Assembly (NCBI GenBank): GCA_025839675.1
Contig: CP104013.1
Span: forward strand, 3,540,001 to 3,572,000
Length of the DNA stretch: 32,000 nucleotides
Direction: 5' to 3'
DNA from: Candidatus Lokiarchaeum ossiferum
GTDB lineage: Archaea > Asgardarchaeota > Lokiarchaeia > Sigyniarchaeales > Promethearchaeaceae
Positions 1,559-18,720 of this stretch are shown piece by piece. The position numbers and the translations under genes were made by a program. The first letter of the stretch is position 1. Each line of letters starts with the position of its first letter. The notes below the pieces were generated by a model. That model saw only the letters and a program-made list of their open reading frames with translations. It had not been told where the DNA came from and did no database searches.

Positions 1559-1712
1559 AGGTTATTTAAAATATTCATATATTAAAAATACCACTTTTTT
1601 GTCATCTGGACCAATTTTGGTTTTGAAGAAAGGTTTTTAATGAAAAGATAATTTAATGGGGTTAATTTGCAGTGATTAAATTTTCATTATTATAAATAAG
1701 AAGGAATATCCT

Positions 1713-1823
1713 ATGAATCGCACAAAATCGATAAATTCTCATTCTCACACTTTATCGTTACGTGGATTTTCTCTTCTTGGTTTATTACACTTGCAATTGT
1801 TAGTTCTTCTTCTCTTATTATAG
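1713..1823 (+). CDS. Leu-rich leader peptide (36 aa) upstream of leuA
   Basis: ATG 1713 to TAG 1821-1823 encodes MNRTKSINSHSHTLSLRGFSLLGLLHLQLLVLLLLL. It has 14 Leu in total, and 12 of the last 16 codons are Leu, running right up to the stop. A partial SD (AAGGA, 1701-1705) lies 7 nt upstream. It is not in the ORF track because it is under 60 aa. Confidence 0.6.
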   Translation: MNRTKSINSHSHTLSLRGFSLLGLLHLQLLVLLLLL

Positions 1824-1824
1824 T

Positions 1825-1900
1825 GGCCTCTTAGATTCTTGGCTATTATAATCCATCTTTCTTTTGAATCTAAGGGGCCGCTGTTGAAACATTAGAATTC
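1825..1900 (+). promoter_or_regulatory. alternative RNA pairings between the Leu leader and the leuA SD
   Basis: S1 (1825-1838, GGCCTCTTAGATTC) pairs with S2 (1866-1879, GAATCTAAGGGGCC) over 14 bp with one G.U. S1 starts 2 nt after the leader stop. S2 (1866-1873) can instead pair with S3 (1892-1900, TTAGAATTC) over 8 bp with one bulged A, ending 2 nt before the leuA SD AAGGAG (1903-1908). Confidence 0.5.
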
Positions 1901-1922
1901 AAAAGGAGATTTTAGACAAATT

Positions 1923-3545
1923 ATGACCCAAAATAAAAATATTTCAGTTTCCCAAATGATGGAAAAGATGCAAAATCAAATGAATTTGCCTCCCCACGCC
2001 TACTACTTTGACACTACTCTACGAGATGGTGAGCAAACCCATGGAATTGTATTTAATATGAATGAAAAACTCGAAATTGCCCGGAGTCTAGATAATTTGG
2101 GCATCGATGTGATTGAAGCAGGATTTCCCGTCGTCTCTGATGGCGACTTTCAAGCCTGCAAAGAAATTGTGAAACTTGGCTTAAAGGCAGAAATTGCTGG
2201 ATTGGCTCGATTAAATCAACAAGACATTGATTGCGCTGTAGATGCCGATCTGGATGCCATCCACGTATTTATCGCTACGTCAGATCTGCATTTGAAGAAT
2301 AAATTAAAAATGACTCAAGATCAAGTCCTATCGAAAATTGAAAGCTATGTTTCCAAGGCGAAAGAAAATTTTACCAATGTAGTCTTCTCGGCCGAAGATG
2401 CTACTCGAACAAACTTGGATTTTCTGATTAAATGCAATGAACTCGCTGTAAATTCTGGGGCAACTCGAATCAATATTCCAGATACAGTTGGGACTATTAC
2501 CCCGATGGCGTATGGATACATAATAAAAGAACATTACAATAAGTTGCCTAAAAATATCCGAATTTCGGCACATTGCCATAATGATTTTGGTTTAGGTGTT
2601 GCTAATACCATTGCAGCTTTTGAAAATGGGGCTTCCGAAGCACAAACAACAATCTTAGGTTTAGGTGAACGAGCAGGAAATGCGGCATTTGAAGAAACTG
2701 CCATGTCTTTGTATGCTCTCTATGGATTGAAATCCAATATTATCTATAACAAAATTTATCCCACTGCAAAACTAGTAGAAAGATATTGCGGTGGAAAAAT
2801 TTCGATTGGAAGACTGACTCCTTTGATTGGGAAAAACGCCTTTTCCCATGAGTCTGGTATTCATGCTCATGCAATGATTCAAAATGCTCGAACCTATGAA
2901 CCAATTTCTCCTTCATTATTAGGAATTCCGCGCTCTGATTCCAAATCAGCAATAGTTGCCCAATCTATAAAACTCGGAAAACACACAGGTAATCATGCCT
3001 TGAGGGCTAAAATTAATGAAATAGGTATTATTCCTACGGATGAGCAGTTTTCAACGATTCGGAATAACATTAAAAGGATTGGCGACAAAGGACATGAAAT
3101 TCGAGAGGAAGATTTTCTCGCTATCGTTAAAGATGTGATGGGGGAGATTCCAGAACAAGAAAAATTCGTAATATTAGAAGAATTGACAGTATTGACCGGA
3201 TCAGTTACCCCGACTGCAACGGTTCGGTTGAAAATTCGAAACAATGGAGATTTCATTGAAAGAATTGCCTCCTCCATTGGTAATGGTCCTGTGGATGCCA
3301 GCATCAATGCTATTGTAAAATGTTTTTCCAAAATGTCGAAAATTCTATTGCTCTCATTTGATATTGAAGCCATCACCGGAGGTACTGATGCTTTAGGGCA
3401 TGTATCCATAGAAGTGGAAGATATTGAAACCAATAATATCGTCTCTTCCAATGCGACCCACGAGGATGTGGTCATGAGTGCCGTATTAGCCATGATTAAA
3501 GCCTTGAACAAACTTGTACGGGAAAAAAATTCCTCCCAAGCATAA
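1923..3545 (+). CDS. leuA: 2-isopropylmalate synthase
   Basis: It is 540 aa with the aldolase motifs FDTTLRDGEQ, HCHNDFGLGVANT and GLGERAGNA, plus a C-terminal regulatory (LeuA-dimer type) domain. The SD AAGGAG is at 1903-1908. The leuA-versus-cimA assignment is supported by the Leu-rich leader. Confidence 0.8.
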   Translation: MTQNKNISVSQMMEKMQNQMNLPPHAYYFDTTLRDGEQTHGIVFNMNEKLEIARSLDNLGIDVIEAGFPVVSDGDFQACKEIVKLGLKAEIAGLARLNQQDIDCAVDADLDAIHVFIATSDLHLKNKLKMTQDQVLSKIESYVSKAKENFTNVVFSAEDATRTNLDFLIKCNELAVNSGATRINIPDTVGTITPMAYGYIIKEHYNKLPKNIRISAHCHNDFGLGVANTIAAFENGASEAQTTILGLGERAGNAAFEETAMSLYALYGLKSNIIYNKIYPTAKLVERYCGGKISIGRLTPLIGKNAFSHESGIHAHAMIQNARTYEPISPSLLGIPRSDSKSAIVAQSIKLGKHTGNHALRAKINEIGIIPTDEQFSTIRNNIKRIGDKGHEIREEDFLAIVKDVMGEIPEQEKFVILEELTVLTGSVTPTATVRLKIRNNGDFIERIASSIGNGPVDASINAIVKCFSKMSKILLLSFDIEAITGGTDALGHVSIEVEDIETNNIVSSNATHEDVVMSAVLAMIKALNKLVREKNSSQA

Positions 3546-3578
3546 TCCTCCCCATTAAATTTATATTGATAGTTATTC

Positions 3579-3585
3579 TTTTTTT
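3579..3585 (+). terminator. T7 tract downstream of leuA
   Basis: The sequence agttattc-ttttttt-cat lies 34 nt after the leuA stop and before the SD of the next leader ORF. Confidence 0.35.
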
Positions 3586-3613
3586 CATATTCTCTTTAGG
3601 AGAAACTCAAATA

Positions 3614-3727
3614 ATGTCACAACTAACCTGTCCTCAAAATACCTCCATTGTTAATCTTTCTAAGGTAGGGTTAGGTTTACGCATTATTACCATTATTTCT
3701 TTGATTATTCTTATTATTATCTGCTAA
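3614..3727 (+). CDS. Ile-rich leader peptide (37 aa) upstream of cimA
   Basis: ATG 3614 to TAA 3725-3727 encodes MSQLTCPQNTSIVNLSKVGLGLRIITIISLIILIIIC. It has 10 Ile in total, and 9 of the last 14 codons are Ile. The SD AGGAG (3598-3602) lies 11 nt upstream. It is not in the ORF track. Confidence 0.6.
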   Translation: MSQLTCPQNTSIVNLSKVGLGLRIITIISLIILIIIC

Positions 3728-3735
3728 GATATTAA

Positions 3736-3833
3736 ACTCTTTGCCGATAATAATCTCGTTTTTACGTTTAAATTTTTGGTGAAGGGTGCAGATTTAATTA
3801 GGATATTTTGGAAATCTTGGAAATCACCAAAAA
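3736..3833 (+). promoter_or_regulatory. alternative RNA pairings between the Ile leader and the cimA start
   Basis: S1 (3736-3745) pairs with S2a (3778-3787) over 10 bp including 3 G.U. S2b (3773-3782, TTTTTGGTGA) pairs with S3 (3824-3833, TCACCAAAAA) over 10 bp perfectly. The two S2 arms overlap, so the structures exclude each other. T5 tracts lie at 3759-3763 and 3773-3777. A tandem direct repeat TTGGAAATC x2 lies at 3808-3825. Confidence 0.45.
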
Positions 3834-3849
3834 CTCACAGGAAATCAAA

Positions 3850-5559
3850 ATGAATACTACACTTGTTCAACTTTACGATACTACTTTACGCGATGGCTTA
3901 CAAATGGCCGGAATAGCGCTATCACAGCGAGACAAATACTTACTAGTTCAGATGCTACACAACCAGTTGAATATTAATCATATTGAGATTTACCCGTTTT
4001 CCAACCCGAAAGATCGTGAATTGATTTCCATGGTAAAACAAAACACACCTGAACTTTTGGATGCGTTGGTGGCTTTTGGGTCTACCAGAAATGTGAAAAA
4101 TATCCCTCAAAATGATCCTAATCTACTATCTCTTTCCACTTGTGGGCTGAAAAAAGCCACAATATTTGGGAAATCTTGGATTTTACATTTAGAAGCTATT
4201 CACGCTTCACCAGAGGAAAATTTGGCAATGATTGCTGATTCCGTAACATATCTCAAAGAAGCTGGGTTAACAGTTATCTATGATGCGGAACACTTCTTCG
4301 ATGGATACAACGAAAATCCAAAATATGCTTTAAAAACTTTGTTAGCTGCCGAAAATGCTGGAGCAGATTATCTGATCCTATGTGATACCAATGGAGGATG
4401 CCTTCCCTCTGATATAAAACAAATTGGACAAGAAATATTGAAACATACCAATGTTCCTTTAGGAATCCATACTCACAACGATTCTGGTTTAGCCGTTGCT
4501 AATTCCATAGTCTTTACACAACTGTGTTTAGATGCGGGGCGACGTTGTCAAGTTCAAGGAACCTTAAATGGGATTGGAGAACGATGTGGCAATGCGAACC
4601 TTATCACCTTAATCCCAATTTTGAATCTTAAATTAAATCAAAAAATCATCCAGAAGGATAATTTTGCGAATTTAACTTCCTTAGCAAATGTAACGCTTGA
4701 AATTATGAACTTAAATCCCTCTGCAAATTCTCCTTTTGTGGGATCCAATGCTTTTTCCCATAAAGGTGGAATGCATATAGCCGCTGTTCGGAAAAATAAT
4801 TCTCTCTACGAACATATTAATCCAAAATGTTTAGGAAACAAACGCAAATATTTAATAAGTGAAATGGCCGGACGAAGTGCTCTTTTACAAAAAATGTCTC
4901 AATTCGAGATTCCTGTTGATAAGGATAATCCTCTCCTTGCTGAAATCTTGAAAAAAATTAAGACAAAGGAGTCGAAGGGATATACATACGAAGGTGCGGA
5001 TGCTTCCCTCGAGATTTTGATCCGGAGTTTAATCGCAGATTCAAATCGGGATATTAATTTTTATCGCCAAAAGTTCTTTGAAGTGGATTATTTTAGGGTT
5101 GTTATAGATGCCCGCAATCTATTTAACAAGAATGCTATTTCAGTTTTTACTGATGCAAATGTGAAAACTTCTTTCTTTCAAGGGGATGTTAAACGCGATT
5201 TTCATACAGCGGATTCTGGAAATGGGCCGGTAAGTGCTTTAGATAATGCGCTCCGAAAAGCCTTGATAAATTTCTATCCTGCGTTAAACGAAATCGAGTT
5301 ATCTGATTTCAAAGTACGCATCAGCAATGTCTATGATAGTGATCATGGTACTGCCTCCCGTGTTCGAGTTTTAGTAGAAACTAAAGATCTAGATGGGCAG
5401 ATATGGAATACAGTTGGAGTGCATTCAAACATTATATTGGCCTCATTTATTGCCTTAGTCGATTCATTTATTTATAAATTACTTAAGAATAATGTCAATC
5501 CAGTGGAACATCAGAGTTCAGTGGAAGTACCTGAGGTGAAATCAGCGATAAAAATGTAG
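3850..5559 (+). CDS. cimA: LeuA-related long-form synthase, probably (R)-citramalate synthase
   Basis: From ATG 3850 it reads MNTTLVQLYDTTLRDGLQ, with HTHNDSGLAVANS, NGIGERCGNANL and a C-terminal regulatory domain. It resembles the LeuA-related branch that contains Geobacter-type CimA (IE..P.SNPKD motif). The track ORF starts at an upstream in-frame TTG at 3808. The Ile-rich leader supports an isoleucine-pathway role. Confidence 0.62.
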   Translation: MNTTLVQLYDTTLRDGLQMAGIALSQRDKYLLVQMLHNQLNINHIEIYPFSNPKDRELISMVKQNTPELLDALVAFGSTRNVKNIPQNDPNLLSLSTCGLKKATIFGKSWILHLEAIHASPEENLAMIADSVTYLKEAGLTVIYDAEHFFDGYNENPKYALKTLLAAENAGADYLILCDTNGGCLPSDIKQIGQEILKHTNVPLGIHTHNDSGLAVANSIVFTQLCLDAGRRCQVQGTLNGIGERCGNANLITLIPILNLKLNQKIIQKDNFANLTSLANVTLEIMNLNPSANSPFVGSNAFSHKGGMHIAAVRKNNSLYEHINPKCLGNKRKYLISEMAGRSALLQKMSQFEIPVDKDNPLLAEILKKIKTKESKGYTYEGADASLEILIRSLIADSNRDINFYRQKFFEVDYFRVVIDARNLFNKNAISVFTDANVKTSFFQGDVKRDFHTADSGNGPVSALDNALRKALINFYPALNEIELSDFKVRISNVYDSDHGTASRVRVLVETKDLDGQIWNTVGVHSNIILASFIALVDSFIYKLLKNNVNPVEHQSSVEVPEVKSAIKM

Positions 5560-5622
5560 GAATTGATCAAAACTTTCTGGTTTCAATAGCAAAGTACCAG
5601 AGATAAAAATGACATTTAAAGA

Positions 5623-5628
5623 TTTTTT
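5623..5628 (+). terminator. T6 tract downstream of cimA
   Basis: The sequence ga-tttttt-aacg lies about 65 nt after the cimA stop. Confidence 0.3.
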
Positions 5629-5781
5629 AACGAAATTCATTCTAATTGCTCAATATTAGAATAAAATATTTTTAGTGAATTTTGAGATTTAATACTTGTA
5701 ATATAGTATTTCAATTTTGATAATTGGGGCATTTTCAAAAAGTTTAATTACTTTTCTTACTTTTAGTAAAACAATATCTTT

Positions 5782-5934
5782 GGAGCCAATCTTAATGTCT
5801 AAAATATTTCACGCTCGAAAAATTCCATTCTTTCTTTTAAAAATTCGCGTGATTTTAGTCATTTTACTTGTACTTATTATTATTTGCTAGATTGGCTCCT
5901 TATCGATTATACTTTATTAGTTGGTAAGGAGTTG
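5782..5934 (+). promoter_or_regulatory. mutually exclusive pairings: a leader-bracketing stem versus an ilvB SD-sequestering hairpin
   Basis: A (5782-5792, GGAGCCAATCT) pairs with B (5889-5899, AGATTGGCTCC) over 11 bp perfectly, enclosing the whole leader ORF. B' (5893-5909) pairs with C (5918-5934) over 17 bp (11 Watson-Crick, 6 G.U) with an 8-nt loop. C contains the ilvB SD AAGGAG (5926-5931). B and B' overlap. Confidence 0.55.
5795..5890 (+). CDS. Ile/Leu/Val-rich leader peptide (31 aa) upstream of ilvB
   Basis: ATG 5795 to TAG 5888-5890 encodes MSKIFHARKIPFFLLKIRVILVILLVLIIIC. Twelve of the last 13 codons are I, L or V. The SD GGAG (5782-5785) lies 9 nt upstream. Its last ~20 nt (CTTATTATTATTTGCTAG) nearly match the end of the Ile leader (CTTATTATTATCTGCTAA). 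Confidence 0.65.
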   Translation: MSKIFHARKIPFFLLKIRVILVILLVLIIIC

Positions 5935-5938
5935 AACA

Positions 5939-7804
5939 ATTATCAAAGGCACGAAAATTATAAAGAAAATCCTAAAAGAAACAGGAAACACCACCCTCTT
6001 TGGGTATCCTGGAGGTGCAATTATGCCCTTCTATGACGAAATCTATGAAGATCCGGATATTCGAAGTATTTTGATGCGACATGAGCAAGCTGCAGGCCAT
6101 GCGGCTGAAGGATTTGCAGTCGCTTCTGGGAAATTGGGAGTTGTTATGACCACTAGCGGACCTGGAGCGACCAACGTAATCACTGCTCTCGCCAATGCCT
6201 ATTACGATAGCTCTCCTCTCTTGGCATTTTCAGGGCAAGTTCCAACTCATTTAATTGGAAATGATGCTTTTCAAGAAGCCGATTTAATAGGTTCTACTAT
6301 GGCTATCACAAAACACAATTATCTAATCAAGAATGTTAATGATGTGGGTCGAATTTTTAAAGAAGCAATTCATATCGCTACAACGGGAAGACCTGGTCCA
6401 GTTTTTATTGATTTACCTAAGGATGTACAAAAGGCCGAAAGTACGGCAAAATTACCTATTCCTATGGATATCTCCTTAGTTGGTTATAATCCAATCACAT
6501 TCACCAATGCAGTAAAACGGCAAGTAAAAACGGCTTTGCAAATAATCTCTGAAGCCCAATATCCTGTAATCATTGCTGGAGGTGGAACTTTACTAGCCAA
6601 TGCCTCCGATGCTCTTCAACAGTTCGTCGACACTCTTAGGATCCCAGTGGTCTATACATTAAAAGGTAAAGGAGTTTTGAGTGATGATCATCCCTATGTG
6701 CTTGGATTGATTGGAATGCATGGTCGGAAACGTGCCAATTTTGCTGTTTCTGAAGCGGATGTTGTGATTGCTCTTGGTTGTCGGTTTAGTGATCGCATTA
6801 CAGGTGATTTACAGAAATTTCCTGGCCAGTCCAATGCAAAAATAATTCATGTAGATATCGATGCTGCAGAAATTGGAAAAAATGTATCGGTCGATCTCCC
6901 AATCGTTGCCGATGCAAGATGTGCTTTGGATGAATTTAATCATCAAATTCAAAAATCTTTGGTAAGAAATGAGTCTTATCCCATGAAATCATGGTGGTAT
7001 AAATTCATAGATGGATTAAAAGCCTCTTCTGGTATCCCCAATGTAACTACTCCTGGAAAAACTGGTCTAATCTTACCCGAAAAAGTGATGTATGAAATTA
7101 ATCAAATATTGGAACCAGATGATATTGTTGTGAGTGAAGTAGGACAAAATCAAATGTACTGTGGTCATTATTTGAATATTCGAAAGCCTCGGACATGGAT
7201 CACTTCAGGAGGCCTTGGTACTATGGGTTTTGGTTTTCCAGCCTCTATTGGAGCGAAGGTGGCAAAACCAGATTCTGAAGTCTGGTTGATAGCGGGTGAT
7301 GGATCCTTTCAAATGAATATGGCTGAATTAGCAACCCTCAAGCAACATAACATCAAAGTCAATATCGTGATCTTGAATAACCAATATCTTGGGATGGTGA
7401 GACAATGGCAAGAATTATTCCATGAAAAACGATATGCTGGAACATGTCTGCAATGCGATAATGGGGAGTATTGGCCTGATTTTGTGAAATTAGCGGAGGC
7501 ATATGGATTCAAAGGTCTACGAGTAACTGATCCCGCCGAAGTACGCATGGCTCTTGAAATATGTCGTTCATCAAAGGAATCCTTTATCGTTGAATTAATG
7601 ATAGAACCAGAATCCAATATTCTACCAATGTTACCTCCTGGGGGGGCACTCAATACATTCTTCAGCCGAAAAAGGGAAAAACGATCAATCTATGATTGGT
7701 ATCGACGACTTCCTCGAATTGAAAGCGAAGTAGTTGGCTATAAAGTACAAAACACCAATGAAGATGCATTTTCGGTGTATTATGAACAGGAGATGTCACG
7801 ATAA
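5939..7804 (+). CDS. ilvB: acetolactate synthase (acetohydroxyacid synthase) large subunit
   Basis: It is a ThDP enzyme with the motifs GYPGGA, GPGATN and GLGTMGFGFPASIGAK. The track ORF starts at ATG 6023, but the conserved N-terminus (IIKGTKIIKKILKETGNTTLFGYPGGAIMPFYD) is encoded in frame upstream with no AUG/GUG/UUG. ATT 5939 lies 7 nt after AAGGAG, and an in-frame TGA at 5933 sets the upstream limit. Confidence 0.85.
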   Translation: MIKGTKIIKKILKETGNTTLFGYPGGAIMPFYDEIYEDPDIRSILMRHEQAAGHAAEGFAVASGKLGVVMTTSGPGATNVITALANAYYDSSPLLAFSGQVPTHLIGNDAFQEADLIGSTMAITKHNYLIKNVNDVGRIFKEAIHIATTGRPGPVFIDLPKDVQKAESTAKLPIPMDISLVGYNPITFTNAVKRQVKTALQIISEAQYPVIIAGGGTLLANASDALQQFVDTLRIPVVYTLKGKGVLSDDHPYVLGLIGMHGRKRANFAVSEADVVIALGCRFSDRITGDLQKFPGQSNAKIIHVDIDAAEIGKNVSVDLPIVADARCALDEFNHQIQKSLVRNESYPMKSWWYKFIDGLKASSGIPNVTTPGKTGLILPEKVMYEINQILEPDDIVVSEVGQNQMYCGHYLNIRKPRTWITSGGLGTMGFGFPASIGAKVAKPDSEVWLIAGDGSFQMNMAELATLKQHNIKVNIVILNNQYLGMVRQWQELFHEKRYAGTCLQCDNGEYWPDFVKLAEAYGFKGLRVTDPAEVRMALEICRSSKESFIVELMIEPESNILPMLPPGGALNTFFSRKREKRSIYDWYRRLPRIESEVVGYKVQNTNEDAFSVYYEQEMSR

Positions 7805-17327: not shown

Positions 17328-18503
17328 TTATTGCTTATCTAAAATTTGTTTGGCTATCGGGATGAATTTTTCTTTGCGTGCGTTATGATCCTTGATATAA
17401 TCCATGATTGTTTTGATGGCTTCTTTCTTACATATCCCACACAGCATTCCCCCGCGGCAGCGGAGGTAACGATCTTGCAGTTTCTCATCGTCTGGTTGGA
17501 AGTGAATTTGCAAGAGTTTGAAAATCATACATTTTTCTGGAACCCCCCCGAGTTTTTCTTGCTCTTCTCGGTTATTTCTTCCTCCCGTATAAGCATTTCG
17601 GAGTTTCTTTTCAATCGCTTTGGGTTCATCATCCATATTGAAGTAACTATTGGGGCGAGATTTGCTCATTTTCTTATTAACATCATCTAATCCAGGGAGA
17701 AGCTTATGATAAGTTGCAGCAGGTTTAAAGAAGGGGATTTCCACTTTCTTTTTCGTTTTTTCGTCAATTTCAGTAGCTTTAAAATGCTTGGTTAAATCCC
17801 GAACGAGTCGCAAATGAGGATCTTGATCAATTCCCACTGGAACGACCGTAGGCATTCGTTCATCTTTCAATTGTGGCATTAAAATATCTCCAACTTGAAC
17901 TAAGGCTGCTAAATATAAGGCAAAATCACGATCTCCGTAGATTGCTTTCATCATATTATTGGTAACATATCGTCCCGCTGTAAAAGGCATGTCTTTCACT
18001 ATGGGTTCTTGAGATTGACGCCATATGTAAGCACGATCAGGATCCAAACCTAAGGTTAAAATATCCGCGAGATTGTCAATCGCATTATGATAGGACTCGT
18101 CATAGGTCATCCCATTATCTGCAAAAGATTCTATGTCTGCAATCGCATAATACACAAATCCTCCCATTTTTTGAAATTCTACTATTTCTGAGGCGGTCGT
18201 CATGGTTCCTAAGTGAAAATGTCCGCTAGGTTTAATGCCACTCATTACGGCCCACGGCTTTTGGTCCTGAATCGCTCGCAAAATCAACTGAAAATCTCGA
18301 TGACCATAGATTATCTTTCTTCGTAAGAAGCGATTTTTTTCATAAAGAGAGTAAGGAATTTCCATCTCTTGTATCATTTTGATTCCAAACTCTTCACAGA
18401 GCCGAACATAGTCCTCATCGGAAACCAAATCATCTCCCCAAGGGTTAAACGCCGGTTCTTGGGGAGTCTCCGAAGGAGGTAATTCATTTTCTTCTTTCGA
18501 CAT
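17328..18503 (-). CDS. trpS: tryptophan--tRNA ligase (archaeal/eukaryal type)
   Basis: It is a class I aaRS with GIKPSGHFHLG (HIGH-like) and KMSKS motifs. The C-terminal segment GGVPEKCMIFKLLQIHF...CRGGMLCGICKKE is typical of archaeal/eukaryal TrpRS. I use ATG 18503; the track ORF begins 3 codons earlier at TTG 18512. Confidence 0.82.
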   Translation of the reverse strand: MSKEENELPPSETPQEPAFNPWGDDLVSDEDYVRLCEEFGIKMIQEMEIPYSLYEKNRFLRRKIIYGHRDFQLILRAIQDQKPWAVMSGIKPSGHFHLGTMTTASEIVEFQKMGGFVYYAIADIESFADNGMTYDESYHNAIDNLADILTLGLDPDRAYIWRQSQEPIVKDMPFTAGRYVTNNMMKAIYGDRDFALYLAALVQVGDILMPQLKDERMPTVVPVGIDQDPHLRLVRDLTKHFKATEIDEKTKKKVEIPFFKPAATYHKLLPGLDDVNKKMSKSRPNSYFNMDDEPKAIEKKLRNAYTGGRNNREEQEKLGGVPEKCMIFKLLQIHFQPDDEKLQDRYLRCRGGMLCGICKKEAIKTIMDYIKDHNARKEKFIPIAKQILDKQ

Positions 18504-18720
18504 TACTTCCAAATAATGTTCGCTTTGATTTTATTTTTTCGTCTTTGGGCGACAAAACTAGCATTTAAATTGAATTGAAAAAAACAGCGATTTTTCAGTT
18601 TTTGAATCACAAAAATTATAATAAATCCCCTATTTTTTCTACTAACTCATGTGAGAATTCTTGGATTGGTATCGTATTACCAACACTCACAAATGAGACT
18701 TAAATTAAAAGGTTAAAAGC

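Follow-up and report, generated by a model that had tools for sequence, protein, structure and literature searches.

We have found what is probably the first family of ribosome-mediated (leader-peptide) attenuators in Archaea. The family appears to be widespread in the Asgard lineages Promethearchaeia, Hermodarchaeota and Hodarchaeota, and each of three genes would have a leader specific for its own amino acids: Leu for leuA, Ile for citramalate synthase and Ile/Leu/Val for acetolactate synthase. Its leuA member is predicted to be a three-state switch of access to the Shine-Dalgarno (SD) sequence, with no terminator hairpin. A full-text literature search found no published report of an archaeal leader-peptide attenuator. 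For the single Asgard leuA gene from which the analysis starts, we see about even chances that its leader is a ribosome-mediated, leucine-sensing translational attenuator.

A leucine-rich leader upstream of leuA

The gene presumed to be regulated, leuA (positions 1923–3545 of the window, i.e. of the whole 32,000 nt stretch of DNA that was analysed; all features described here are on its plus strand), codes for 2-isopropylmalate synthase. Its product contains the Pfam domains HMGL-like, HCS_D2 and LeuA_dimer and scores 557 bits against NCBIfam NF002085 (cut-off 517). The closest relatives of this LeuA are encoded on contigs of genomes named Promethearchaeum, Promethearchaeota, Hermodarchaeota and Hodarchaeota, and the window also encodes a SecY with a Sec61 plug domain and an EMC3/TMCO1-like protein; by these signs the host is a Promethearchaeum-like Asgard archaeon and not a bacterium. 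The archaeal host changes the meaning of ‘termination’ and makes the finding far less ordinary than the initial annotation of this DNA had assumed. We know of no use of hairpin terminators by archaeal RNA polymerase.

A TATA-like box, TTTTTAAT (1634–1641), is the putative archaeal promoter of the leader–leuA transcript; six close relatives carry TTTTTAA or TTTATAA at the same place. Some 25–30 nt past the box the alignment contains a conserved 5′-UTR block, TTTGCAGTGATTAAATTTTCA (1666–1686), which may be the transcription start or an operator. The leader ORF has an SD of its own, AAGAAGGAA (1698–1706), with AGAAGGA invariant in the six relatives, and the distance from this SD to the ATG matches the 9–12 nt usual within the window, where SD-led initiation is common and GGAG-to-start spacings of 9–12 nt are frequent.

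The leader ORF (1713–1823) has 36 codons, encodes MNRTKSINSHSHTLSLRGFSLLGLLHLQLLVLLLLL* and ends with TAG at 1821–1823; it is conserved with in-frame indels and synonymous changes of Leu codons. Twelve of its last 16 sense codons (1773–1820) are Leu codons, and it lies directly before leuA, so that the Leu leader claimed earlier for this position is borne out. The run reaches the very last sense codon, and a hairpin begins at the stop codon. We infer that the leader is translated and that the Leu-codon run would act as a sensor of Leu-tRNA supply, with ribosomes stalling on it when Leu-tRNA is short; the sign and the level of control given below are predictions from the modelled folds.

The comparison set consisted of 15 distinct Asgard leuA loci, all that could be fetched; a metagenome scan for more homologues yielded five loci, two of them with upstream DNA and both of these duplicates. 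A common layout is present in all 15 loci: a Leu-rich uORF (26–39 codons), a stop-adjacent hairpin and a near-fixed distance from the stop to the leuA start (86–101 nt). Leu accounts for 7–12 of the last 16 codons in every one of the homologous leaders, with a Leu background of ∼9% as estimated from codon counts; Ile and Val occur at most once each. What the 15 lineages have in common is limited to the Leu run, the place of the hairpin and the spacing; the rest of the peptide varies.

The cluster to which leuA belongs contains two sister leaders, an Ile-rich one before the citramalate synthase gene (cimA) and an Ile/Leu/Val-rich one before ilvB. In all three leaders the amino acid matches the downstream pathway. 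There is no Trp leader before trpS in the window. A second uORF ending at the main start codon was seen in locus L008 and before cimA in the window; it is missing in L007 and was treated as chance.

Predicted competing helices around the leuA Shine-Dalgarno sequence

The main hairpin of the leader is formed by S1, GGCCTCTTAGATTC (1825–1838), and S2, GAATCTAAGGGGCC (1866–1879), as read from the sequence. The 14-bp pairing with one G·U (T1829·G1875) that had been proposed for them is correct, and folding extends it to 19 contiguous base pairs, 1820–1838 with 1866–1884, the stop codon included. The extended 5′ arm (1820–1838) is pyrimidine-rich (GGCCUCUU...) and contains the TAG at 1821–1823; the extended 3′ arm (1866–1884) is purine-rich and SD-like (UAAGGGGCC). 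The fold of 1820–1925 has an energy of −31.1 kcal/mol (z = −3.2), equalled by one of 200 shuffles, and a fold that begins at the stop codon and leaves out the last 20 nt ahead of the start has a z-score of −4.9 (0/200 shuffles). Within the window the S1 motif matches only itself and its complement S2, and a dispersed repeat or mobile element was rejected on this ground. Stop-codon read-through or frameshifting at the hairpin was also rejected, the extended frame not being conserved in L004.

A post-stop hairpin of 50–67 nt with 18–27 bp is present in 15 of 15 leaders, starting −2 to +6 nt from the stop. Its z-score ranges from −1.2 to −5.4, and in 10 of the 15 loci none of 200 shuffles equals it; at nearly every locus pyrimidines dominate the 5′ arm and purines the 3′ arm. 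The initial annotation would have given up its helices if none of them formed or if homologous leaders showed neither conservation nor covariation. The S1:S2 hairpin survives, with a hairpin of the same size at the same position after the stop in all 15 leaders; it is its position and size that are conserved, and alignable relatives have no double compensatory changes.

Alignment-based methods gave the following results. The close-family alignment contains no double compensatory pairs, and its covariation score was equalled by 360 of 500 shuffles. MAFFT with RNAalifold on all 15 sequences returned no shared pairs, because the arms are not alignable by sequence. A covariance model of the close family did not recover the distant leaders; only L025 was hit, in the right place, with E = 0.37. 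L007 and L008 differ by an isolated compensatory change within a pairing that involves the leuA start codon. Since strict covariation is lacking, the structural case rests on position, size and per-sequence z-scores together with this compensatory change. Rfam searches gave no match at the gathering score in the window and none at E ≤ 1 in 1600–6100, and a known RNA family was rejected on this ground. Separately, a possible second compensatory change was seen by eye in the sequences of the L007 and L008 inner hairpin.

In the computed folds a second helix competes with S1:S2. The motifs TTAGATTC (1831–1838) and TTAGAATTC (1892–1900) do lie on both sides of their complement GAATCTAA (1866–1873), and the leuA SD, AAGGAG, is confirmed at 1903–1908, 14 nt before the ATG, with CAAAAGGAG conserved in the close family. 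When S1 is removed in a constrained fold, an 18-bp alternative helix forms between 1855–1873 and 1892–1910, with bulges at U1860 and A1896. Its 5′ strand (1855–1873) consists of the loop AUCUUUCUUUU and the first 8 nt of S2 (GAAUCUAA), its 3′ strand (1892–1910) contains S3 (1892–1900) and the leuA SD, and CTTTTGAAT/ATTCAAAAG is a perfect 9-nt inverted repeat. The S2:S3 pairing is thus the top of a helix that covers the entire leuA SD: the competition suggested earlier is supported, and the second helix engulfs the SD instead of merely abutting it. By itself the alternative helix has a stability at chance level (z = −0.06; 82/200 shuffles), while its effect on SD accessibility is beyond chance (0/100 shuffles). 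As originally drawn, S2:S3 is specific to one lineage (the window and L018) and does not hold generally among close relatives; in other close relatives the predicted SD sequestor is a different segment, GAGGCUUCU.UUG, located 3′ of S2.

A third predicted pairing, overlooked in the initial annotation, would join the Leu codons UCUUCUCUU (1808–1816; the 5′ strand of stem P1) to the SD region AAAAGGAGA (1901–1909). The stem UCUUCUUUU:AAAAGGAGA appears in the RNAalifold consensus of the close family with 91.5% of cells paired, without covariation and with both strands otherwise constrained; the window has a C1814·A1903 mismatch in it. The stem could be a by-product of CUU codons, which complement any purine-rich SD. 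In addition, the anti-SD loop 1855–1865 and the SD could form a pseudoknot while S1:S2 is formed, a structure beyond nested folding.

Ribosome position and access to the leuA start

The energy needed to open the leuA SD was obtained by folding the leader with a ribosome placed codon by codon. In the window, opening costs about 4.2–4.9 kcal/mol without a ribosome, 1.5–3.0 kcal/mol with the A-site on codons −9 to −3 (1794–1814), where S1:S2 stays intact, 6.0 kcal/mol with the ribosome on the last Leu codon and 7.3 kcal/mol at the stop. The values for L004 at the same four stages are 5.8, 1.2–3.0, 5.7 and 5.4 kcal/mol (1.2–2.0 kcal/mol over codons −8 to −3). Opening of the SD on stall is also seen in silico in L004, L021 and L023 and is weaker in L024; L011 is flat until the last codons. 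A rise from stall to stop is found as well in L011, L021 and L023, although L011 and L023 start from a weakly closed state. In L007 and L008, which are unrelated in sequence, both the opening on stall and the rise towards the stop appear at the level of the whole ribosome-binding site (RBS).

In five of six close relatives the stop-minus-stall contrast was equalled by 0, 0, 2, 4 and 0 per 100 dinucleotide shuffles. The scan with its shuffle control detected no SD switch in L024, L006 and L009 and a weak one in L005. Without a ribosome the SD is closed by only ∼1 kcal/mol more than in shuffled controls, and shuffled spacers themselves sequester the SD by ∼3–4 kcal/mol. Taken as predictions, the position scan and the shuffle control support the earlier view that the position of the leader ribosome sets the choice of helix. 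Pausing anywhere on the terminal Leu codons or at the stop had been expected to free S2, but the scan separates two states: a ribosome at the stop or on the final one or two Leu codons does occlude S1 and closes the SD, and pauses at codons −9 to −3 leave S1:S2 in place, with the SD at its most open.

The translational attenuator that we propose would work as follows. Two pyrimidine-rich segments would be able to cover the leuA SD, namely the Leu codons CUUCUUCUC and a second anti-SD next to S2, and the 19-bp S1:S2 hairpin would keep the latter locked away. Without a ribosome the Leu codons would pair with the SD, S1:S2 would be nested inside and the SD would be partly closed. If leucine is scarce, a ribosome would wait with one of the Leu codons −9 to −3 in its A-site; the first anti-SD would then be covered with S1:S2 intact, so the SD would be free and leuA would be translated. 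If leucine is plentiful, the ribosome would reach the last Leu codon and the stop and unwind S1, upon which the freed 1855–1873 would pair with 1892–1910, and the SD would be closed until the ribosome departs. The model would thus follow the three-state logic of the trp attenuator, with SD access as the output.

Several points count against this model. Among those given above are the lack of covariation, the failure of the covariance model on distant leaders, the loci with no switch or a weak one, the C·A mismatch and possible by-product nature of the Leu-codon:SD stem, the small excess of closure without a ribosome and the possible loop–SD pseudoknot. Under steady-state translational control, S1:S2 (−31 kcal/mol) should re-form fast once a ribosome has left. 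Nor does the model account for the conserved composition of S2, which is rich in purines and resembles an SD. The sister leaders behave differently in the scan: the true SD of ilvB is the 3′ arm of a hairpin that starts ∼2 nt past the stop (5892), with the anti-SD CUCCUUA at 5895–5901, and it opens only once the ribosome has reached the last codon or the stop; the cimA leader gave no switch. The idea that the sister leaders share the same three-state SD switch was therefore rejected, the ilvB logic being opposite and cimA flat.

The composition of S2 bears on another explanation, which we consider unlikely. As in erm/cat-type unmasking, a ribosome held up on the final Leu codons by leucine shortage, close against the hairpin, would melt S1 and expose the SD-like S2 as the active element and not as a lock; acting as a standby site, or else as the SD of a mini-ORF (1884–1895), S2 would bring in a small subunit and pass it to leuA. 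The arms themselves speak for unmasking: in almost all 15 leaders the 3′ arm is rich in purines and looks like an SD and the 5′ arm is similar to the 16S anti-SD, a composition that free covariation would not keep. The extension of the Leu run up to the last sense codon, with the hairpin starting from the stop codon, also fits, and the sister ilvB leader shows exactly such logic in the scan. On the other hand, occlusion of S1 is predicted to close the leuA SD, not to open it, in five of six close relatives, and S2 lies 25–43 nt from the leuA start. The mini-ORF, TTG-AAA-CAT-TAG directly 3′ of S2, argues in both directions: it is kept in frame in 7/7 close relatives (TTG, two variable codons, then TAG or TAA, 6 nt past GAGG/GGGG), but it is not conserved among the distant leaders, and its 6 nt spacing is below the 9–12 nt usual in the window.

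It is quite unlikely, in our estimate, that control is exerted on transcription, with the position of the leader ribosome deciding whether RNA polymerase enters leuA. In such a scheme FttA/aCPSF1 might terminate on ribosome-free RNA, by analogy with Rho at tna and mgtA, or termination might occur at U-rich tracts, and the hairpin would shield or expose the RNA. The scheme gains from the proposal that FttA polices archaeal transcription–translation coupling as Rho does in bacteria (PMC11616081) and from the possibility of such coupling in archaea (French et al. 2007, Mol Biol Evol 24:893, as cited in PMC11616081). It also gains from the cimA leader, where two T5–T6 runs occur at equivalent places within the hairpin in 4/4 relatives, and from the lone T-rich run near the stems of the window, TTTCTTTT, which is located in the S1:S2 loop.

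The leuA leaders themselves argue against termination. No bacterial-type terminator (a hairpin followed by a T-run) was found in 1560–1960, and the window has no T-run of at least 5 between the leader stop and the ATG. T-runs of at least 5 occur in just 5 of the 15 leuA leaders, at inconsistent positions, and four leaders have no run of at least 4; neither a bacterial-type terminator nor an archaeal oligo-T signal was retained as a candidate. The simplest polarity model has the wrong sign, because a stalled ribosome uncouples from the polymerase and termination would be favoured during starvation. It counts further against the scheme that, to our knowledge, nothing is known about Asgard archaeal terminators. 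The terminator search and the T-run survey agree with the initial annotation that no oligo-T follows either stem, and for this reason control of translation rather than of termination, as suggested there, is the better reading.

Highly improbable is the explanation that there is no sensor, the ORF being a hydrophobic membrane micro-protein or untranslated, the hairpin a generic element of mRNA stabilisation or processing and the SD pairings by-products of U/C-rich Leu codons near a purine-rich RBS in an AT-rich genome: a membrane helix could be formed by LLGLLHLQLLVLLLLL at the C-terminus, close relatives conserve the peptide motif SLRGFSLLGLLHLQ, sequestration of the SD by the ∼3–4 kcal/mol given above is found with shuffled spacers as well and strict covariation is absent, but the amino acid fits the pathway three times in one cluster (leuA, citramalate synthase and acetolactate synthase), nothing except the Leu run, the hairpin position and the spacing is kept over 15 lineages, and the stall-versus-stop contrast goes beyond shuffles.

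Significance and relation to known systems

If these leaders are indeed attenuators, sensing of charged tRNA by a ribosome on a uORF would not be exclusive to bacteria and would extend to the prokaryotic relatives of eukaryotes, uORF control being common in eukaryotes too. Asgard archaea would read amino-acid supply via translation of short uORFs, and a long-standing gap in archaeal regulation would be filled. The leader would provide a defined cis element for testing transcription–translation coupling, SD-dependent initiation and stalling in a hard-to-grow lineage, and uORF control in eukaryotes could be compared with a prokaryotic counterpart. It also suggests a rule for annotation of Asgard genomes (a Leu/Ile/Val run followed by a stop codon and a Y-rich/R-rich hairpin, with the start ∼90 nt further on) and, for synthetic biology, a compact and portable sensor design.

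Short uORFs that are sensitive to amino-acid supply, or rich in the amino acid concerned, are used elsewhere to tune a downstream biosynthetic gene. The uORF control of GCN4, a eukaryotic case, depends on eIF2, which governs scanning and reinitiation, and involves no codon run. The mycobacterial polycysteine uORFs are leaderless and bacterial (bioRxiv 10.1101/834739). The Asgard leaders would resemble both systems in the use of a short uORF to tune a biosynthetic gene and differ from both in having a stop-adjacent hairpin.

In ermC/ermB and cat, a drug and the nascent peptide stall the leader ribosome, which always opens the downstream SD, and there is no terminator; ermB uses two leader ORFs. 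The likeness to the Asgard leader is that a ribosome stalled in a short leader ORF would remodel hairpins and change SD access with no terminator involved, and the two leader ORFs of ermB recall the Asgard mini-ORF at 1884–1895. Unlike in erm/cat, the trigger suggested by the codon run and the gene context would be Leu-tRNA shortage, not a drug, and opposite outcomes are predicted for stalls at codons −9 to −3 and at codon −1 or the stop.

The actinobacterial LEU element, also located upstream of leuA, has a uORF with a run of Leu codons, a base stem between the Leu run and the SD that encloses a pseudoknot with an alternative fold, and no obvious terminator; those who described it were sceptical of leader-peptide control and suggested that it binds a protein (Seliverstov et al. 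2005, PMC1262725). The Asgard leader shares with it the Leu-run uORF before leuA and the lack of a terminator, and may also have a Leu-codon:SD base stem with an enclosed structure. The two were compared by description only, with no sequence relationship found and with an Asgard base stem that lacks covariation. In contrast to the bacterial element with its enclosed pseudoknot, the Asgard base stem would enclose a long hairpin that starts at the stop codon.

The enterobacterial attenuators of trp, leu, ilvGMEDA and ilvBN have three ribosome-dependent states, mutually exclusive hairpins and leaders matched to the pathway. The output helix of the Asgard leader would differ in covering the SD, in place of a G+C-rich terminator with a U-run, and no Rfam leader family matches the Asgard leader even at E ≤ 1. 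What the Asgard leaders would have in common with the enterobacterial attenuators is the arrangement of three ribosome states and exclusive helices, with separate pathway-matched leaders for leuA and ilvB.

The leuA leader and its competing helices

Leader 1, the Leu-rich ORF that precedes leuA (1923..3545), occupies positions 1713-1823 of the + strand and reads MNRTKSINSHSHTLSLRGFSLLGLLHLQLLVLLLLL up to its stop codon. The initial annotation described two competing helices in the spacer, and its coordinates and sequences proved correct when read directly from the sequence: S1, GGCCTCTTAGATTC (1825-1838), pairs with S2, GAATCTAAGGGGCC (1866-1879), over 14 bp with one G.U; the complement at 1866-1873 is flanked by TTAGATTC (1831-1838) and TTAGAATTC (1892-1900, S3); and AAGGAG lies at 1903-1908. 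Folding extends S1:S2 to 19 contiguous bp (1820-1838 with 1866-1884), with the stop codon TAG (1821-1823) inside the stem. The second helix is predicted as well, S2:S3 being its top, but the description of it as abutting the Shine-Dalgarno (SD) sequence was too weak: the best fold without S1 is an 18-bp helix (1855-1873 with 1892-1910, bulges at U1860 and A1896), in whose lower half the loop segment UCUUUCUUUU is paired to AAAAGGAGA, the entire leuA SD.

Against shuffled sequences the S1:S2 hairpin has z = -3.2 in the region 1820-1925 (matched by 1/200) and z = -4.9 between the stop codon and 20 nt before the start (0/200 as stable), whereas the stability of the alternative 18-bp helix by itself is no better than chance (z about 0). 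The absence of an oligo-T terminator, remarked on earlier, agrees with a search for bacterial-type terminators in 1560-1960, which found none; 1600-6100 gave no Rfam match even at E <= 1. A motif search of the window ruled out S1 as a dispersed repeat.

In the close family (the window and the homologous Asgard leuA loci L004, L011, L018, L021, L023 and L024) RNAalifold predicts a nested ground state, where the Leu codons UCUUCUUUU pair with the SD region and enclose S1:S2; the window pairs 1808-1816 with 1901-1909, with one C.A mismatch. We placed a ribosome on each leader codon, restricted folding to the RNA beyond its 3' leading edge (set at A-site + 12 nt) and took as readout the free energy to open the SD core; these folds are nested, and a loop-SD pseudoknot is outside their reach. 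A leading edge at + 15 nt gave the same pattern, shifted by one codon. Opening the window's SD costs 4.2 kcal/mol with no ribosome, 1.5-3.0 with the A-site on codons -9 to -3 (1794-1814, counted back from the stop), 6.0 on the last Leu codon and 7.3 on the stop. The corresponding values (kcal/mol) are 5.8, 1.2-3.0, 5.7 and 5.4 for L004; 2.5, about 2.2, 6.4 and 6.1 for L011; 4.1, 2.4-4.0 (2.4-3.0 at -5 to -3), 4.9 and 4.6 for L021; 1.8, 1.1-2.5, 5.5 and 5.5 for L023; and 4.3, 2.3-4.3 (2.3-3.0 at -8 to -3), 2.4 and 2.7 for L024, where the scan found no closing at the stop. Dinucleotide shuffles of the spacer (100 per locus) matched the stop-minus-stall contrast in 0/100 cases for the window, L004 and L023, 2/100 for L011, 4/100 for L021 and 26/100 for L024. 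The ground-state SD is only slightly more closed than in random spacers.

With the ribosome on the stop, the window and L018 close the SD by means of the loop segment plus S2:S3; the other close relatives use GAGGCUUCU.UUG, 3' of S2, which reads CCGCU (mutated) in the window. Since the closing segment differs by lineage, the function has apparently been kept by different sequences. Two unrelated loci, L007 and L008, go from closed to open to closed at the whole ribosome-binding site (5.4/0.7-1.4/4.0 and 4.0/0.3-1.1/3.2), the closing helix joining the 3' part of the pyrimidine arm to the region around the leuA start codon (UUUUCCAUUU:AAAUGGAAAA in L007, UUUCGUUUU:AAAAUGAAA in L008, with one C:G to U:A compensatory change). 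The scan detected no switch in L006 and L009 and a weak one in L005; in all, the switch is missing in 3-4 of the 11 lineages tested.

Complementarity also exists between the SD of the leader itself, AAGAAGGAAUA, and two CUU-rich stretches of the ORF, codons 19-22 and 31-33 (1698-1708 with 1765-1778 or 1801-1811). The full-length minimum-energy folds inspected in detail, those of the window, L004, L011 and L021, pair this SD with codons 19-22. Such pairing points to an additional layer of control, by which translation of the leader would govern its own initiation.

Conservation among Asgard leuA loci

All 15 distinct Asgard leuA upstream regions sampled carry an upstream ORF, 26-39 codons long if the shortest version with an ATG start is taken and up to 49 codons if the first in-frame ATG is used. 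Of its last 16 sense codons, 7-12 encode Leu, and Ile and Val occur no more than once each. In 13 of the regions the run of Leu codons continues to the final sense codon; L005 ends in Lys and L026 in His. Every region also has a hairpin of 18-27 bp spanning 50-67 nt, whose first base lies -2 to +6 nt relative to the stop codon's end, and a stop-to-ATG distance of 86-101 nt. In nearly all loci the 5' arm is pyrimidine-rich (GCCUCUU, CACCUCU, CCCCUCU, GCCUUCU and so on) and the 3' arm purine-rich (AAGAGGC, GGAAGGC, AGAGGGG and so on). Locus by locus, z ranges from -1.2 to -5.4, and in 10/15 none of 200 shuffles folds as well. No comparable leader was present at the one Bathyarchaeota leuA locus considered.

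Close relatives have the leader SD AGAAGGA without variation and also keep a TATA-like box and a block in the 5'-UTR; indels in their leader ORFs preserve the frame, and Leu codons swap synonymously with Leu itself retained. The TATA-like TTTTTAAT (1634-1641) is conserved in six relatives, as is, about 25-30 nt 3' of it, the block TTTGCAGTGA(A/T)T..ATTTTCA (1666-1686), which may mark where transcription starts or serve as operator for a protein regulator additional to the leader. A mini-ORF (TTG, two codons and a stop; 1884-1895) shares its first base with the end of S2 and lies 6 nt past an SD-like GGGG/GAGG; it is in frame in 7/7 members of the close family, with codons 2-3 varying and TAG or TAA as stop, and was not found among the distant leaders.

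As to the conservation and covariation expected of the helices, position, size and composition are conserved, but covariation was not found. In the alignable close family every change that preserves a pair is one-sided (G.U to G-C or A-U), with zero double compensatory pairs and covariation no better than shuffles; the distant leaders gave no in-register alignment by sequence, nor does a close-family covariance model recover them. The structure is thus conserved in position, size and composition, and not proven by covariation.

The host and the sister leaders

The host is an Asgard archaeon. Proteins encoded in the window (about 36% G+C) include a SecY whose plug is of the Sec61 type, an EMC3/TMCO1-like protein and TrpRS, which we take to be archaeal or eukaryote-like versions. 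The nearest LeuA relatives (87-89% identity) come from genomes named Promethearchaeum sp. and Promethearchaeota, those at 66-69% from Promethearchaeia, Hermodarchaeota and Hodarchaeota, and in one relative an Arf-family GTPase gene adjoins leuA. The + strand cluster runs leader 1, leuA, leader 2, citramalate synthase (cimA; TIGR00977, 567 bits), leader 3, ilvB, ilvN, ilvC, ilvD, leuC, leuD, leuB. Within 200 nt upstream of trpS (TrpRS; 17328-18720, - strand) there is no Trp-codon leader ORF, so the window's leaders are confined to the branched-chain amino-acid cluster.

Leader 2 (3614-3727, + strand; MSQLTCPQNTSIVNLSKVGLGLRIITIISLIILIIIC, 10 Ile in the last 15 codons) lies directly upstream of cimA, whose product opens the Ile-specific pathway, and has homologues in three relatives (L004 2859-2969, L021 3173-3283, L023 3368-3478). 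Its stop is followed by a hairpin with pyrimidine-rich and purine-rich arms (about 3737-3790 in the window), which holds two T5-T6 runs at equivalent places in 4/4 loci (T5 at 3759-3763 and 3773-3777 in the window); these might act as termination signals of the archaeal kind. No SD switch emerged at the cimA leader in the ribosome scan.

Leader 3 (5795-5890, + strand; MSKIFHARKIPFFLLKIRVILVILLVLIIIC) is Ile/Leu/Val-rich and precedes ilvB. A very stable hairpin (5892-5909 with 5917-5934) starts about 2 nt past its stop; the ilvB SD AAGGAG (5926-5931) is the 3' arm, and the anti-SD CUCCUUA (5895-5901) begins 5 nt past the stop. The computed cost of opening this SD is 12-13 kcal/mol; only when a ribosome occupies the last codon or the stop does it drop, to about 1 kcal/mol. 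Leader 3 is absent in L004 and L010, where the cimA end overlaps the ilvB start. Both sister leaders end in Cys-stop (…IIIC; 3722-3727 and 5885-5890), an ending kept in all four leader 2 homologues, the window's included; the leader 2 codons AUC UGC pair with GCAGAU at the base of the downstream helix. For ilvB there is no ATG, GTG or TTG start (region 5933-5945). Given an in-frame TGA at 5933-5935 and a TPP_enzyme_N profile that aligns from nt 5945 (129 bits vs 102 bits when ATG-6023 is taken as the start), translation must begin at ATT (5939) or ATC (5942), 7-10 nt past AAGGAG. Two other Promethearchaeum genomes keep this arrangement (L004 about 4770-4800; L010 about 3215-3245).

Proposed mechanism and known systems

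That leuA is under a Leu-responsive cis-regulator dependent on leader translation we consider very probable. A specific three-state SD model, resting on the computed folds, merits moderate confidence, its chances being roughly even. Leader 1 would be translated from its own SD; SD-led initiation in this host is plausible, as 12/23 window starts carry a GGAG/GAGG/AGGT-type motif, usually 9-12 nt before the start (AGGA-only matches excluded). The GGAG motifs usually end at that distance from the start codon, e.g. at 7804, 8356, 12351, 14603 and 22782. Bacterial SD-to-start spacing is typically 5-9 nt; with 9-12 nt usual in this genome, the 14-nt spacing at leuA is less odd than it appears. When Leu-tRNA is short, ribosomes would, by established bacterial leader-peptide logic, dwell on the Leu run; with the A-site on codons -9 to -3 they would cover the Leu-codon anti-SD and leave S1:S2 intact, which is predicted to lock the second anti-SD, free the SD and permit leuA translation. 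When leucine is plentiful, the ribosome would reach the stop and melt S1, and the freed 1855-1873 is predicted to close the SD, a possible guard against leaky coupling. On ribosome release the nested ground state would form again. The model yields a physiologically sensible sign of control, which the initial annotation had left open.

Confidence is moderate because covariation is lacking, some lineages have no switch, the ground state is only slightly closed and a loop-SD pseudoknot is possible; S1:S2 should also re-form fast after ribosome release, which counts against the model, and the sister leaders behave differently. Nor does the model account for S2's conserved, SD-like composition or for the TTG mini-ORF that is likewise conserved. 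These limits leave room for rivals. An erm-like unmasking of S2 would give that composition a role. Control of transcription, via FttA/aCPSF1 or U-tracts, finds candidate signals in the leader 2 hairpin and no bacterial-type terminator at leuA. No sensing at all is unlikely beside a Leu run so widely retained.

According to a 2021 paper (PMC8448881), archaea offer no known example of attenuation or antitermination, and a review of archaeal transcription-translation coupling leaves attenuation and leader peptides unmentioned. We found no report of an archaeal leader-peptide attenuator in the full-text literature, a coverage outside which most subscription journals fall, so that an earlier report may exist. 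The novelty would be that of a known kind of control in a new domain of life, with three amino-acid-specific leaders in one Asgard cluster and the leuA leader in every lineage examined.

The closest architecture is the actinobacterial LEU element, with a Leu-run uORF and a base stem of Leu codons and leuA SD enclosing a compact structure; it too is without a terminator, and its mechanism is not settled (PMC1262725). With erm/cat translational attenuation the leuA leader has the output, SD access, in common, but the trigger differs. The closest logic is that of the enterobacterial trp/leu/ilv attenuators: their defining terminator and an Rfam match are both missing, so the leuA leader is not a member of those families, but it would work like a three-state attenuator of the trp type in which an SD sequestor replaces the terminator.
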